A DNA stretch of 64,000 bases from an uncultured Bacillales bacterium (GTDB lineage Bacteria > Bacillota_I > Bacilli_A > RF39 > UBA660): contig CAMUXV010000002.1 of the NCBI GenBank assembly GCA_947164795.1, forward strand, positions 156 to 64,155. The letters are read 5' to 3'. Each line of letters begins with the position of its first letter. The first letter of the stretch is position 1. The translations under genes and the position numbers were made by a program. This document shows, piece by piece, positions 9,033 through 64,000 of this stretch. Under the pieces are notes generated by a model. It saw only the letters and a program-made list of their open reading frames with translations. It was not told the DNA's origin and searched no databases.

Positions 9033-9374
9033 ATGGCATATAGAAAATTAGGTAGAGAAACTAGACATAGAAGAAGTATGCTTTCTAATATGACAAGAGA
9101 ACTTATTTCTAAAGAGAGAATAGTTACTACTGAAACAAGAGCTAAAGAAGTAAGAAAAAGCTTTGATAAAATGGTAACTTATGGTAAAAAAGGTACTCTA
9201 GTTTCAAGAAGACTTGCTCTAGCATTTTTAGAAAATGACAAAAAAGCAGTAGAGAAAGTATTTAATGAATTAGCACCAAGATATAAGGATAGAAATGGTG
9301 GTTATACAAGAATTATTAAAATGACTGAAAGAAAAGGAGATAACGCTCTAGAAGTTATTTTAGAATTAGTTTAA
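9033..9374 (+). CDS. rplQ: 50S ribosomal protein L17
   Basis: [20 protein letters not shown]... is a canonical L17. Confidence 0.95.
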
Positions 9375-9402
9375 GAAACATATTTTTATGTTTCTTTTTT
9401 TT
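9374..9402 (+). terminator. Rho-independent terminator of the alpha operon
   Basis: AGAAACAT / ATGTTTCT stem followed by a T-run. Confidence 0.7.
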
Positions 9403-9495
9403 ATTAAAAAAATATTTGTATAAAGATTATATTTAAAATATATTGTATTTTTTACAATTGTAAAGTATAATATATAACTGAAAAGAGGAATATAT

Positions 9496-10467
9496 ATGAA
9501 TAAATATATGAAGAAAGTTATTGAAGAATTAGATAATAAAAAAGGTGAAACAGTAAGCCTTTTACTTGAAGGAAATATTCTTTATAAAGATGAGTTTATG
9601 AGTGAGCTAATTAATACTGATAATCCTTACTATATTTATAATGCTGCAAAATATATTAAGGGATTAGATTTAAAAGTACTTACTGAAGCTATTATTAAGA
9701 TTAATAATTTAGATTATATTTATAAATTCGCTAAAGATATAAAAGGAGTATCTATTGATACATTAGAGAATGCTATTACTAAAAGTAATAATCCTTATTA
9801 TATTTGCTTATTTGCTCAAAATGTAAGAAATTCTAATAAGACTAAACTTGCTAATATGTTAATACAAATAGGTAATTATACTTATATTGAATATTTTGCT
9901 AATAATATTAAGAATGGTTTAAATATTTTATTTAATATCATAGTTAAATGTAATGATGCTAAAAAGATTTATGACTTCGCATGTTATTTTAATTGTCATA
10001 TTGATGAATTATCTAAAGTTATTCTTAATACTAAAAACGCTGAATATATATATTTATTTGCTAAAGATATAAAGGATATTAATATTCAACTATTTGAAGA
10101 TAAAATTATCGAATTAAATAATCCTGAATATATATATTTATATGCTCTAAATATTAAATCTAATACTTTAAAATTAGAGAATGCTATTATTAATAGTAAT
10201 AGTGCAGAATATATATATAAGTTTGCTAGAGATGTTAAGGGGGCAGATATCAATAAATTATTTGATGCCATAGTAAAAACAAATAATTATGAATATATCT
10301 TCTATTTTTCTTTACTAGTAGGTAAAGAAAAACTAAAAGAAATAGAGACAAAACTTATAAAAGATGCCTTTTACTTACAATTATTCTATGAATTAATTAA
10401 GAATCCTAACTTTATAGGTTATCAAAATAATAAAGAAGTAGTTATGAAAAAAGTATTAAAAAAGTAA
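9496..10467 (+). CDS. Tandem-repeat protein (323 aa): 42-aa head plus about 9 helical repeats of 27-28 aa. Paralog of 62430..63188.
   Basis: Repeat consensus read from the translation: N-(P/x)-x-Y-I-Y-x-F-A-K-x-I-K-G-x-x-I-x-x-L-x-x-A-I-I-x-x-N. GAGGAA RBS. Confidence 0.7.
   Translation: MNKYMKKVIEELDNKKGETVSLLLEGNILYKDEFMSELINTDNPYYIYNAAKYIKGLDLKVLTEAIIKINNLDYIYKFAKDIKGVSIDTLENAITKSNNPYYICLFAQNVRNSNKTKLANMLIQIGNYTYIEYFANNIKNGLNILFNIIVKCNDAKKIYDFACYFNCHIDELSKVILNTKNAEYIYLFAKDIKDINIQLFEDKIIELNNPEYIYLYALNIKSNTLKLENAIINSNSAEYIYKFARDVKGADINKLFDAIVKTNNYEYIFYFSLLVGKEKLKEIETKLIKDAFYLQLFYELIKNPNFIGYQNNKEVVMKKVLKK
9622..10365 (+). repeat. Intragenic tandem coding repeats, period 81-84 nt (27-28 aa), about 9 diverged copies
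   Basis: Units begin NPYYIYNAAKYIKG, NLDYIYKFAKDIKG, NPYYICLFAQNVRN, NYTYIEYFANNIKN, DAKKIYDFACYFNC, NAEYIYLFAKDIKD, NPEYIYLYALNIKS, SAEYIYKFARDVKG, NYEYIFYFSLLVGK. Confidence 0.6.
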
Positions 10468-10489
10468 CTTCTTTTTTTATATGCAAAAA

Positions 10490-10530
10490 TTAGCAATTAC
10501 TATTGACAATTGCTAGAATAGTGCTATAAT
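10490..10530 (+). promoter_or_regulatory. htpG promoter with an overlapping CIRCE-architecture inverted repeat
   Basis: TTAGCAATT-N9-AATTGCTAG (10490-10516) overlaps the -35 TTGACA (10503-10508). Extended -10 TGCTATAAT ends at 10530, with a 16-nt spacer. A near-identical 41-nt element lies at 57232-57272. Confidence 0.6.
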
Positions 10531-10561
10531 GTACTTGTAAGATGAAAGAAGGAATACACAA

Positions 10562-60384: not shown

Positions 60385-60410
60385 ATAAGTATCCTTATCT
60401 ATTTTCTTTT
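60383..60410. terminator. Bidirectional terminator between convergent genes
   Basis: AGATAAG-TATC-CTTATCT followed by ATTTTCTTTTT. Confidence 0.6.
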
Positions 60411-61067
60411 TATTCTAATTACATATAAAGAATTACCTCGATAATTTCCATTTTCATCAAAGTCATCATCACTATCATAAGTAAAAGCACTTAGAATAAT
60501 ACTCTCCACTTCATCAATACCATCTACTGCATATAATTTAATCGAAGTAATTAATGAATCGCCATTCATACTTTCAAGATGGCTATAAAAGGAACCATCC
60601 TTTTGATGAATATCATCATATAAATATATGTAAAAATATTTACCAAATTTAAATATATCAGATTCTAATATATTAGATTCAAAATGATTACTATCATATA
60701 ACATAAATTTAATATTAAAACCTATTTTATAATTACTTATATCCTCATAACCATCATAATATTTATTCCAAGTATCTTTAAAATTATTACCATCAATAAC
60801 TTCATTATCAGTTAAAAACACTTCAAAAGAACCAATATCTTTATTGCTAATAAAATCAGTGTAATATGCATCTTTAATAACTTCCTTATTATGATAATTA
60901 TTATTATATAGAAATAAACCTAGCCTTATAGGATTATCATCTACATATTCTAGTTCTTTTTCCTCAATAATAGTTTCGTCATTCTCTACTTCCCTATCTA
61001 ATTTTTTTTCAGTTTTTATAGAACAACCTGCTAGTAACAATAAACTTAATAATAATAATTTTTTCAT
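60399..61067 (-). CDS. Putative lipoprotein (222 aa)
   Basis: Signal peptide plus lipobox MKKLLLLSLLLLAGC. Confidence 0.7.
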   Translation of the reverse strand: MKKLLLLSLLLLAGCSIKTEKKLDREVENDETIIEEKELEYVDDNPIRLGLFLYNNNYHNKEVIKDAYYTDFISNKDIGSFEVFLTDNEVIDGNNFKDTWNKYYDGYEDISNYKIGFNIKFMLYDSNHFESNILESDIFKFGKYFYIYLYDDIHQKDGSFYSHLESMNGDSLITSIKLYAVDGIDEVESIILSAFTYDSDDDFDENGNYRGNSLYVIRIKRK

Positions 61068-61128
61068 ATAATACCTCTATTCTTCTATAAATTAAGAGAT
61101 GATAAATATCATCTCATTTTATTACATA

Positions 61129-61202
61129 TGGTGCCAAATGTAAGAATCGAACTTACCTCTAGGCATTACGAGGGCCTTGTTCTACCACTAAACTAATTTG
61201 GC
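61129..61202 (-). tRNA. tRNA-Thr (anticodon CGT), CCA encoded
   Basis: Minus strand GCCAAAT-TA-GTTT-AGTGGTA-GAAC-A-AGGCC-CTCGTAA-TGCCT-AGAG-GTAAG-TTCGATT-CTTAC-ATTTGGC-A-CCA. The cloverleaf folds with one C:U mismatch at positions 31:39. Anticodon loop is C-U-CGU-A-A. Confidence 0.85.
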
Positions 61203-61210
61203 ATGAGGAA

Positions 61211-61699
61211 TTATCTTCCTTTTCCTCTTTTTGGTTCTTCATCTTCCATGGACATACCATTTAACATTCTAAAAAACATTTCCTTTTGTCTTATAGTATT
61301 TATTTCGTATAATTTAGTTCTATATCCATCAATAATAATTTGCATCTTTTTTATAGTTAAAGCTACATAACTTTTACCTAGATATTTTTGGTAAGTATTC
61401 ATGATCATTAATTTTAATTTTTCTGCTTCCATAAGCTTATTTCTGTATCTAGTTGCACCACCATCTTCTTCATCATCATAACTAGTATTGAGTTCCAACA
61501 ACAATTTAGATATTTTACCACTTATTTTCTTTTTTAATAATTTTTCTGTAAGACTAGGAGAAACAAAAACAATTTTATTTACTTCAATAGCATCTTCCTT
61601 TTGAACTTTTGGCTTAACATTGTAACCATCTTTATTATATTCTAAATATACTACTTCCCCACTCTTTTTATCCTTACTCACAAAATAATTACTACTCAT
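61211..61699 (-). CDS. Hypothetical protein (162 aa) overlapping the trmD stop
   Basis: 8-nt overlap with trmD. Occupies the slot where rplS normally follows trmD. It is not L19-like. Confidence 0.5.
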   Translation of the reverse strand: MSSNYFVSKDKKSGEVVYLEYNKDGYNVKPKVQKEDAIEVNKIVFVSPSLTEKLLKKKISGKISKLLLELNTSYDDEEDGGATRYRNKLMEAEKLKLMIMNTYQKYLGKSYVALTIKKMQIIIDGYRTKLYEINTIRQKEMFFRMLNGMSMEDEEPKRGKGR

Positions 61700-62369
61700 T
61701 TCCTAATCCCCCTAGTAAGTCTGGTCTATTTTCTCTTGTTAATCTAAGTCTTTCACTATCTCTAAATTTCTTTATATTTTCATGATGCCCTGATAATAAT
61801 ACTTCAGGTACTTTCATACCACGATACTCTACTGGTTTAGTATAATTAGGATAATCTAATAAGTTATCATCAAAACTTTCACATTCTAAAGATTCACTAC
61901 TTATTACATTATCTACTAATCTTATAATACTATCCATTACAACCATTGAAGGAAGTTCTCCTCCTGTTAGAATATAATCGCCAATAGATAATTCGATATC
62001 AATAATACTTTTTATTCTCTCATCAAATCCTTCGTAGTGGCCACATAGTATTATTAAATGTTCCTCTTTAGATAATTCTCTAGCTGTACTTTGCTTAAAT
62101 ATTTTACCAGATGGTGTCATCATAATTACTTTAGTACTCTCTTTCTTTAGAGATTCAATTGCTCTAAAGATTGGATCACACATAAGCACCATACCACCAC
62201 CACCACCAAATGGATAATCATCTACTTGCTTATTTTTATATGTAGTATAATCTCTAATATTATGAATATTTATTTCTATCTTTTTATCATCAATTGCTCT
62301 TTTAATAATTGATTCTGATAAGAAATTATCATACATATTAGGAAATAATGTCAATACGTCTATTTTCAT
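61692..62369 (-). CDS. trmD: tRNA (guanine37-N1)-methyltransferase
   Basis: MKIDVLTLFPNMY...DDYPFGGGGGMV...LCGHYEGFDERI...IGDYILTGGELP is a canonical TrmD. Confidence 0.95.
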   Translation of the reverse strand: MKIDVLTLFPNMYDNFLSESIIKRAIDDKKIEINIHNIRDYTTYKNKQVDDYPFGGGGGMVLMCDPIFRAIESLKKESTKVIMMTPSGKIFKQSTARELSKEEHLIILCGHYEGFDERIKSIIDIELSIGDYILTGGELPSMVVMDSIIRLVDNVISSESLECESFDDNLLDYPNYTKPVEYRGMKVPEVLLSGHHENIKKFRDSERLRLTRENRPDLLGGLGNE

Positions 62370-62429
62370 GAGTATCCCTCATTTCTAACACTTATTATAA
62401 TATATAATTATATAAAAGTAAATTATTAT

Positions 62430-63188
62430 TTAATAACCTCGATCATTTAATTTCTTCATTAATACTTTAGATTTAATACTAGGTTCTTTAAATAAATAAG
62501 CATATTTATCTTTATTATCTTCTAAATCATTTAAATCATTATCCTTAAGAGAAATACATAGTTTATCAAAATCAACACTTTGTACACTTTCTTTATAATC
62601 TAAAAATTCTTTATATTGATCTAATGATAATGTTTTAGTATTAACTAAAGCTTCCTCTAATAACTCAAGATTAGAATTCTTAATATATCTAGCAAATAAA
62701 GAAATATATCTAGGTTCACCAGTATTAATAATCGCATTAGCCAATCTATTAATATTAGCTCCTGGTACTTCTTTAGCAAAGAAATAAATACCTTCCGGAT
62801 TATTAATATTTATAATAGCATCTTCTAACAATTTAATATTAGCTCCTTTAACTTTTAAAGCAAATGTTTTAATTATGCCAATCATTCTAAGATCAATTAT
62901 AACTTTTTCTATTTCTTCTACAGGAGCATCTTCAATTTCACATGCATAATGTAATAAATATGTAAAACTCTTTCTTTTTATTAATTCATTTATAATTAAT
63001 CTTCGATCATCACTATTTAATACTTTTACATACTTAGCACACTTATATAATAATTCGTCAGTACCTTCATTTAATAAAGTATCGAGTGTCTCTTTATAAT
63101 TAATTATTCCCTTATTAATTAATATATTTATTATTTTACCATTATCTCTATCAATATTCTTTAAAATAATTCTTAAATATTCTGTCAT
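62430..63188 (-). CDS. Tandem-repeat protein (252 aa), paralog of 9496..10467, inserted between rimM and trmD
   Basis: Same 42-aa head (IDRDNGKIINILINKGIINYKETLDTLLN vs LDNKKGETVSLLLEGNILYKDEFMSELIN), followed by about 5 repeats of 28 aa (e.g. NPEGIYFFAKEVPGANINRLANAIINTG). GGGTGAAAGG RBS 11 nt after rimM. Confidence 0.7.
   Translation of the reverse strand: MTEYLRIILKNIDRDNGKIINILINKGIINYKETLDTLLNEGTDELLYKCAKYVKVLNSDDRRLIINELIKRKSFTYLLHYACEIEDAPVEEIEKVIIDLRMIGIIKTFALKVKGANIKLLEDAIININNPEGIYFFAKEVPGANINRLANAIINTGEPRYISLFARYIKNSNLELLEEALVNTKTLSLDQYKEFLDYKESVQSVDFDKLCISLKDNDLNDLEDNKDKYAYLFKEPSIKSKVLMKKLNDRGY
62634..63062 (-). repeat. Intragenic tandem coding repeats (about 5 units of 28-31 aa)
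   Basis: Units begin TDELLYKCAKYVKV, SFTYLLHYACEIED, MIGIIKTFALKVKG, NPEGIYFFAKEVPG, EPRYISLFARYIKN. Confidence 0.55.
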
Positions 63189-63199
63189 AACCTTTCACC

Positions 63200-63682
63200 C
63201 TAATCAAATAAACCATCTATATCTTTAATATATATTTTCTTATTATTTATATCTATACTATCAATTAAATTATATGGAATTAAATACTCCTTATTATCAT
63301 TCTTAATAACTAATAATACTGTTTTTTCATATCTTTCAATATTAATAACATCACCTTTATAATCATCTATAACATAAGCATTAAGTCCAATAATATCTTC
63401 GTCTAAATAATTATTATCTAATTTAATATCTACTTTATCTACATATACATATTTACCTTTATATTTAAGTACTTCATTGATATTAGAATAACCTTCCATA
63501 GTAATCATATCAAAATTCTTATGCCTTCGATAAGTACTAATTACCCCTTTATCGATCTTATCAATATATATATTCATACCTTTAACAAATACTTTATCTT
63601 TATAAGGAAATTTAGAAAGTAATCTAAGTTCTCCTTTGATACCATGAGTATTAACTATTTTACCTATCTTAACTAACTCCAT
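63200..63682 (-). CDS. rimM: 16S rRNA processing protein RimM
   Basis: MELVKIGKIVNTHGIKGELRL...PRC-barrel C-terminus is a typical RimM. Confidence 0.9.
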   Translation of the reverse strand: MELVKIGKIVNTHGIKGELRLLSKFPYKDKVFVKGMNIYIDKIDKGVISTYRRHKNFDMITMEGYSNINEVLKYKGKYVYVDKVDIKLDNNYLDEDIIGLNAYVIDDYKGDVINIERYEKTVLLVIKNDNKEYLIPYNLIDSIDINNKKIYIKDIDGLFD

Positions 63683-64000
63683 TATTTATTCCTCATCTCA
63701 TACATGATAATTGAAGCTGCTACTCCAACATTTAAACTTTCTACATTGTTATCCATATCAATATATAAATTATAATCACACAAGTTTTCAATATCAGTAC
63801 TCATACCATTACCTTCATTACCAAAAATAATAGCATATTTATCTCTCTTATCAATTTCTTTAATATTTATACCATGATCTACTTTCGTACCATATATAGT
63901 GTAATTATTATTCTTTAGTTCTTCAATAAAAGGTATTAATTCTCTTACTATAATATTAATATGAAACATCATACCTTGAGTACTTCTAATTACTTTAGAA
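63682..64000 (-). CDS. SpoU/TrmH-family RNA 2'-O-methyltransferase, C-terminal part (ORF continues past the window end)
   Basis: IFGNEGNGMS...ESLNVGVAASIIMYE are SPOUT motifs 2-3. The reading frame stays open to position 64000 (...SKVIRSTQGMMFH...). Confidence 0.8.
   Translation of the reverse strand, partial: SKVIRSTQGMMFHINIIVRELIPFIEELKNNNYTIYGTKVDHGINIKEIDKRDKYAIIFGNEGNGMSTDIENLCDYNLYIDMDNNVESLNVGVAASIIMYEMRNK

Follow-up and report, generated by a model that had tools for sequence, protein, structure and literature searches.

A 64,000-nucleotide stretch of contig CAMUXV010000002.1 (assembly GCA_947164795.1) from an uncultured Bacillales bacterium, hereafter the window, carries an additional open reading frame (ORF), ORF X, between rimM and trmD, a near-universal gene pair. 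At a rough probability of 0.55 we favour the reading that X is a dispensable, lineage-specific accessory protein, a stand-alone cytoplasmic acidic alpha-solenoid which is more likely a binding module than a ribosome factor. For its place between these two genes, the best explanation is that X inserted recently, and reversibly, at a junction permissive for inserts. The gene and its parts are the following (pI, isoelectric point).

62430 to 63188, minus strand: ORF X, the finding reported here; start codon ATG, 252 amino acids, predicted acidic (pI 5.7) alpha-solenoid protein
63063 to 63188, minus strand: X residues 1-42, N-terminal helical cap (MTxYLxxLxxNI...KGIINYKEVL), common to the paralog Y
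62643 to 63062, minus strand: X residues 43-182, five 28-residue helix-turn-helix repeats, consensus xxxxxxxIxxFAxxVxGANIxLLExAII
62433 to 62642, minus strand: X residues 183-252, C-terminal four-helix extension, the best-conserved part (…YAYLFKEPSxKAKxLxKKLNDRGY)

The G+C content is 26.5% in the window and 22% in X, a composition at which an open frame of 252 codons does not arise by chance. Self-correlation is maximal at lag 28 both in X and in the product of a second ORF of the window, Y (9496-10467), and the two proteins align by BLASTP with E = 2e-18, their N-terminal heads matching from residue 1. The AlphaFold2 model of X, based on an alignment of nine orthologues, has a mean predicted local distance difference test (pLDDT) value of 93.7 and a predicted template modelling score (pTM) of 0.82, and consists of the cap (1-42), five regular hairpins at 28-residue spacing (43-182) and one long followed by three short helices (183-252), while the model of Y (pLDDT 87.9) is a solenoid of about nine hairpins. 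Both models are all-helical, with tandem helix-turn-helix units forming an open superhelix, and every Foldseek match obtained is itself a solenoid. A preliminary description of the locus, made from the sequence, had expected an alpha-solenoid with a 42-residue head and about five 28-residue repeats, quoting NPEGIYFFAKEVPGANINRLANAIINTG (X residues 129-156) as an example, and had taken X and Y for paralogs; the self-correlation, the alignment and the models bear this out. The sequences of X and Y contain neither a signal peptide nor a hydrophobic segment. The orthologues of X are mildly acidic (pI 5.1-5.9) and Y is basic (pI 8.6). Repeat positions 8, 11, 12, 17-20, 23, 24 and 26-28 (I..FA....GANI..LE.AII) are near-invariant among the orthologues and the others highly variable. 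The invariant residues I8, F11, A12, G17-A-N-I20, L23, E24 and A26-I-I28 constitute the hydrophobic core and the turn, and such a near-fixed core with a variable remainder is the usual pattern of a structural core with a variable surface. The orthologue alignment contains 48 invariant columns, the conserved C-terminal tail included, and the C-terminal extension is common only to X-like paralogs of the same genus.

Searches with X, Y and their relatives against Pfam, NCBIfam, PADLOC, PHROGs and the PDB sequences returned nothing specific, and hmmscan of X, Y and 20 further members, at cut-offs of E up to 0.001-1 depending on the search, returned no match to HEAT, HEAT_PBS, TPR, ARM, Sel1, PPR, DUF4116 or LRV repeats. 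The period of 28 residues is unlike that of TPR (34), PPR (35), ARM (about 42), canonical HEAT (37-47) and Sel1 (36-44) repeats; the single helical-repeat type of similar length is the PBS-type HEAT repeat, with about 27-31 residues. In Foldseek searches of the PDB, X retrieved only generic or de novo designed solenoids (best E 0.027, template modelling (TM) score at most 0.40), as did Y (TM at most 0.28). X resembles HEAT-like and DHR solenoids in having two-helix hairpin repeats of some 28-30 residues stacked as a solenoid, in being cytoplasmic and in its presumed surface binding, but differs from them in matching no HEAT, TPR, ARM or Sel1 hidden Markov model (HMM) at E up to 1 and in its distinct family consensus, xIxxFAxxVxGANIxLLExAII. 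As the TM scores to solved solenoids are only 0.1-0.4, the predicted superhelix geometry of X and Y is without a close solved counterpart. The sole meaningful structural match of X is A0A6J5RY29 in BFVD, a protein which comes from an uncultured Caudovirales phage and is uncharacterised (E = 1.2e-5, TM 0.44, 23% identity). The repeat family is undescribed and its fold class ordinary.

The genes and signals around X on the same side of the window are listed below in the direction of transcription.

63682 to 64000, minus strand: SpoU/TrmH-type RNA methylase gene (3' part, the rest extending past the window edge), which opens the unit spoU-rimM-X
63200 to 63682, minus strand: rimM (Pfam RimM, 2.5e-14, and PRC_RimM)
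63189 to 63199, minus strand: rimM-X spacer of 11 nucleotides with Shine-Dalgarno sequence GGTGAAAGG, without a terminator
62394 to 62422, minus strand: promoter-like site TTTACT-17-TATAAT immediately 5' of trmD, kept in 15 of 15 loci of the genus
61692 to 62369, minus strand: trmD (Pfam tRNA_m1G_MT, 6.7e-58)
61211 to 61699, minus strand: p162, a conserved ORF of 162 amino acids and unknown function, overlapping trmD by 8 nucleotides
61129 to 61202, minus strand: tRNA-Thr(CGU), the last gene of the trmD unit
61096 to 61115, strand unspecified: terminator-like hairpin 3' of tRNA-Thr

The arrangement given in the preliminary description, an ORF of 252 amino acids lying 11 nucleotides past rimM and 60 nucleotides before trmD with a ribosome-binding site of its own, is confirmed in full by the sequence and by Pfam. 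Since the rimM-X spacer, in its entirety GGTGAAAGGTT with the Shine-Dalgarno sequence included, contains no terminator, X is read as the gene that ends the spoU-rimM transcript, with this Shine-Dalgarno sequence serving for its translation. The trmD promoter is situated within the 60-nucleotide X-trmD spacer. At all the loci of the genus it has the form (G)TTTAC(A/T)-17-TATAAT, irrespective of what precedes it (rimM, X, another insert or an unrelated gene), and this conservation marks trmD-p162-tRNA-Thr(CGU) as a separate unit, closed by the hairpin. In the window no terminator was found between X and trmD (z = +0.7), while in lineage L008 a strong terminator acting in both directions (-12.4 kcal/mol, z = -5.9) and a convergent ORF of 72 amino acids separate X from the trmD promoter (L008:2828-3076). 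Around X, Rfam gave the tRNA-Thr only, and no other RNA element.

Although trmD is present in all 30 species of the genus, full-length X was found in only two of them (G000 and G219). The region 5' of trmD is in one of five states.

2 species: X between rimM and trmD
16 species: rimM immediately adjoining trmD
1 species (G221; L061:2318-2950): a different, unrelated ORF of 210 amino acids between rimM and trmD
7 species: no rimM, its place taken by BspA-type leucine-rich repeat (LRR) proteins, thymidylate kinase or agmatine deiminase
4 species: flank too short to tell

Eight orthologues of X (250 amino acids, 46-61% identity), all metagenomic, occupy the same position between rimM and trmD, and the order spoU-type methylase, rimM, X, trmD, p162 is found wherever the flanking DNA suffices. 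In a maximum-likelihood tree of TrmD and p162, all X-bearing lineages (G219, G000 and the metagenomic L001 and L008) fall into one clade (support 100/99), to which G203 and G218, both without X, also belong; in the tree G218 pairs as sister with L008, which does carry X. Judged from this tree, the simplest history would be that X was gained once, in a sub-clade of six lineages within one genus, and that two of these have recently lost it. In G203 the rimM-trmD spacer is 206 nucleotides long and begins, at the right distance from the rimM stop codon, with MMLYLKLLMKSY*KDCEKIFNL, where X orthologues start with MTTYLKWIIKNIESDKGKVFNL. Its match to the X head reaches 22.3 bits, a score at about the 97th percentile for shuffled spacers, and the same frame continues into a tail-like ...KAKTFIK, so that this spacer is probably the scar of a head-to-tail deletion of X. 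In G218 only 74 nucleotides are left between rimM and trmD.

Between the same pairs of genomes, the non-synonymous divergence (dN) of X is 0.29-0.47, compared to 0.04-0.21 for rimM, trmD and p162, that is 4-8 times higher, while the synonymous divergence (dS) is alike for all four genes. The divergence of X is therefore a matter of fast protein evolution in a vertically inherited gene; allelic replacement or horizontal transfer as its source was rejected, the dS of X being equal to that of its flanks. The dN/dS ratio (omega) of X stays at 0.17-0.20 in the two pairs with the least saturation and reaches as much as 0.72 in the others, compared to 0.03-0.18 in the flanking genes. X is a functional gene whose constraint is relaxed or in part diversifying, with dN/dS below 1.

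X belongs to a much larger repeat family. A profile built from its orthologues matches 1542 representative clusters (at 50% identity) at E <= 1e-3 and 842 at E <= 1e-10, with lengths of 190-1676 amino acids. In an order-wide sample, 31 of 201 genomes and 20 of 98 genera contained a match; in a class-wide sample of 399 genomes there were seven with a match, all from one family. As far as sampled, the repeat family is restricted to this one family of uncultured, small-genome gut Bacilli. The number of matching stretches per genome varies from 0 to 12, tandem arrays occur, and fusions to PcfJ-like and to AAA_5 domains recur (twice each). X-like paralogs within the same genus have the head and the C-terminal tail in common with X and occupy different sites in different species. 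Viral relatives were also found. Two IMG/VR contigs carry relatives, one of which, UViG_3300026488_000030 (52 kb), shows 27-34% identity by tblastn over X residues 41-182; it encodes (L113:1466-6728) three DUF7666 proteins close together on the same strand (397, 327 and 314 amino acids), interspersed with a radical-SAM gene and a short ORF, and of the three at least the protein of 327 residues has the 28-residue repeats in its C-terminal part. No match was obtained in INPHARED, which covers cultured phages. The phage proteins (A0A6J5RY29 and the IMG/VR DUF7666 fusions) have the repeat fold of X and probably belong to the same family, but they are phage-borne and lack an X-type head and C-terminal tail, the IMG/VR copies having an N-terminal DUF7666 domain instead.

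The neighbourhoods of 42 family members at 38 loci were surveyed, two genes to each side. The 142 neighbouring genes fall into 165 Pfam families, none of which dominates. Members were found next to genes for NrnA-like protein and ackA; next to whiA; next to murT/gatD and thyA; in a DnaD/nth context with radical SAM-SPASM and Bro-N; and in the company of DUF5131, of T2SSE, of a reverse transcriptase, of a cadherin-like protein, and of AAA_14/DUF4143. In G051 (L081:3578-4687) a stand-alone reverse transcriptase (RVT_1, 370 amino acids) lies directly 5' of a same-strand family gene of 416 amino acids, which could represent a retron- or DRT-like pairing. Genes for sigma-70 factors (four of the 142) were considered as a conserved neighbour and rejected, since only the one in G046 lies within about 1.3 kb, those in G164 and in the related pair G095/G123 (one genus) being about 3 kb away.

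The paralog Y lies at the other end of the window, in the interval between rplQ and htpG, with the following features.

9373 to 9403, plus strand: intrinsic terminator 3' of rplQ (stem of 10 bp, -9.5 kcal/mol, z = -6.2, and then a U run), dividing Y from the alpha operon
9496 to 10467, plus strand: Y, 323 amino acids, about nine 28-residue repeats, pI 8.6, forming its own transcription unit between rplQ and htpG
10503 to 10530, plus strand: htpG promoter, a perfect TTGACA-16-TATAAT with TG before the second hexamer, dividing htpG from Y

The terminator after rplQ, together with the other genes that lie between rplQ and Y in relatives, places Y outside the alpha operon. The preliminary description had attached both paralogs to operons for ribosomal proteins or ribosome biogenesis; this holds for X, the last cistron after rimM, but not for Y. 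Orthologues of Y adjoin the htpG region in G000, G219 and L012, and in G203 only the last 81 residues are left (63% identity). X and Y are thus jointly present (G000, G219) or jointly decayed (G203), which hints at a shared selective fate, and their decay in G203 implies that both are dispensable. The rplQ-htpG interval is in itself a hotspot of accessory cargo (window 9375-10561; L012:3481-6698; L115:1376-5735). Beside the Y orthologue it holds, in L012, a reverse-strand DUF3800 gene and a reverse-strand gene for 192 amino acids and, in G219, an ORF of 202 amino acids. In G203 it contains a WG-repeat protein of 483 amino acids, a partial rplQ duplicate with an internal stop codon (L115:3658-3887) and a protein of 341 amino acids with repeats which, reading them by eye, we take to be of the helicase-associated type.

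If X is an accessory binding protein, its arrival would not have been driven by a functional tie to RimM or TrmD. The rimM-trmD junction, where trmD has its own promoter and is thereby transcriptionally uncoupled, would have been in this state in the genus already when X landed there, and would have tolerated insertions. Its fluidity is seen in the seven species without rimM 5' of trmD, in the unrelated 210-residue insert of another and in the terminator and convergent ORF of L008. The variable repeat positions would form a binding surface for a protein or peptide partner, and the predicted structure makes it most likely that X acts as a stand-alone solenoid which binds such a partner through this fast-evolving surface. 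The leading sub-hypothesis is a strain-specific function in interaction or conflict, for instance with phages or mobile elements, rather than in core ribosome biogenesis. A role in conflict is suggested by the turnover and the swings in copy number, by the copies in phages and by members fused to PcfJ-like, DUF7666 or AAA_5 domains, and X is possibly such an accessory, conflict-related protein. X, Y and three other members had no match in PADLOC-DB, where the AAA_5 part of one fusion protein weakly matches DolB. Nor does X resemble the RRNPP-type receptors (Rap, NprR, PlcR), as it has no TPR HMM match and is not followed by a small same-strand ORF. In this form the finding is modest, a new repeat family. 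It defines a large helical-repeat family for which neither Pfam nor NCBIfam has a model, and offers a clean case in which insertion into a near-universal gene pair need not imply functional coupling.

Several observations weigh against this reading. No toxin, effector or defence gene adjoins X. At least nine species-level lineages keep X intact, under purifying selection and always at this site, 9-11 nucleotides after rimM, and such a fixed site would tie the expression of X, as judged from the spacing, to the ribosome-maturation operon. Flanks in translation operons also recur in the family. Y follows rplQ; genus g38 has a distant member placed between rplS and a trmD that is fused to p162; G217 has its copy, the paralog closest to X, directly 5' of rpsJ-rplC; G103 has a member directly 5' of infC; in G134 one precedes the gene for a MiaB-type enzyme; and in G113 one is two genes past rpmA. 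With X and Y included, about 7 of the about 38 loci have a translation flank, a count that is a floor. By chance, one of two immediate neighbours would be a translation gene in some 24% of cases, a figure which derives from a rough estimate, that translation takes up about 13% of the genes when a genome has about 1.1 Mb, and is not a computed null. Set against this rough null, there is no enrichment beside translation genes, their number being roughly as chance allows.

These flanks speak for the main alternative, namely that X, and the family in general, is linked to translation, for example as an acidic escort or chaperone of a basic ribosomal protein or as a RimM/TrmD adaptor co-expressed with rimM. 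It would account for the 11-nucleotide distance to rimM without a terminator, for the constant position in all nine orthologue lineages, for the acidity of X (pI 5.1-5.9), for the members at trmD|rplS in another genus, 5' of rpsJ-rplC, 5' of infC and after rplQ, and for the joint presence (G000, G219) or decay (G203) of X and Y. However, X has been lost in two of the six lineages of its clade and is absent from 28 of the 30 species of the genus. It also diverges 4-8 times faster than the genes beside it, Y is transcribed as a unit of its own, and the phage-borne members and those fused to PcfJ, AAA_5 or DUF7666 fit such a role poorly. Retention of X wherever rimM and trmD are kept is not observed either: trmD occurs in 30 of 30 species and X in two, and its sister lineages G218 and G203 are without it. 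Orthology of X and the g38 copy was rejected, the latter being no closer to X than to many other members, and there is consequently no operon-specific subfamily; likewise, members flanking the ribosomal-protein supercluster (S10 at its start, L17 at its end) are confined to genus g1 (the Y orthologues and the G217 copy) and do not recur across genera. The preliminary description had proposed a lineage-specific family of ribosome- or translation-associated factors and had asked whether its members always adjoin translation genes, homologues without such an association counting against the idea. Lineage-specific the family is, with matches in one family of Bacilli among the genomes sampled. Its members, on the other hand, are not always beside translation genes, most of the 42 at the 38 loci being in unrelated contexts, and with the losses of X this largely tells against the translation part of the proposal, which we consider unlikely. 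Improbable to a higher degree is the more specific form in which the family as a whole would escort or chaperone assembly factors or basic ribosomal proteins in bacteria, as the first prokaryotic equivalents of Yar1, Acl4 and Syo1. This would explain why unrelated subfamilies settled independently at rimM|trmD, trmD|rplS, rpsJ, infC and rplQ, as well as the joint retention and loss of X and Y, and if true it would introduce a new concept in bacterial ribosome assembly. The eukaryotic ribosomal-protein chaperones are built of ankyrin (Yar1), TPR (Acl4) and HEAT/ARM (Syo1) repeats, and X is like them an acidic repeat protein, its co-expression with rimM being deduced from gene spacing only. It has no sequence or specific structural relation to them and is dispensable and patchy in distribution, which would be unusual for such a chaperone. 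A parallel in position is found in YlqC and YlqD, small non-repeat proteins conserved across Bacillota. In Bacillus subtilis their genes are additional members of the operon rpsP-ylqC-ylqD-rimM-trmD-rplS (PMC10100781). Like X they are restricted to a lineage, have no assigned role, sit within the rimM/trmD operon and share a transcript with rimM, but they lie 5' of rimM instead of between rimM and trmD, and X is a 252-residue solenoid limited to a sub-clade of one genus.

The reading of X as an accessory binding protein must also be set against that of a passenger, a repeat gene left over from a mobile element or a phage, without a present function in the cell and slowly decaying in a tolerant intergenic site. 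The patchy distribution, the recent losses with their deletion scar, the omega values of up to 0.72 and the same repeat module on viral contigs would all be consistent with it. What makes it quite doubtful is the intact frame in at least nine lineages at 46-61% identity, together with the omega of 0.17-0.20 in the two least saturated pairs, the 48 invariant columns with their conserved C-terminal tail, the very high confidence of the predicted fold and the maintenance of a Shine-Dalgarno sequence at tight spacing after rimM. Y, and with it X, might also be a co-factor of HtpG, in the way that TPR co-chaperones serve eukaryotic Hsp90, as Y orthologues stay beside htpG in G000, G219 and L012, and as a remnant in G203. 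This is extremely improbable, however, given that htpG has its own perfect promoter, that in L012 and G203 a gene on the reverse strand stands between Y and htpG, that the cargo of the rplQ-htpG interval differs per species, that HtpG here ends with ...DIMANK and not with a MEEVD-type tail, and that X is situated far from htpG.

Some further observations concern the genes downstream of X. The p162 gene follows trmD in all 30 species of the genus, and in genus g38 TrmD bears its product as a C-terminal fusion (398-399 amino acids, motif ...EAEMLKS.IISTYA.YLGK...; L087:5804-7000 and L088:5891-7090, both on the minus strand), a fusion that argues for a putative TrmD-linked role of p162. In G209, a single contig of 1.5 Mb, trmD and p162 are recovered in several BLAST pieces (L069; G209:C1, about 866673-867242), possibly as a result of frameshifts or of an assembly problem. 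Beyond the trmD unit, at 60399-61067 on the minus strand, the window encodes a lipoprotein of 222 amino acids (MKKLLLLSLLLLAGCS...) which has no family match and is kept in G218 and L001.

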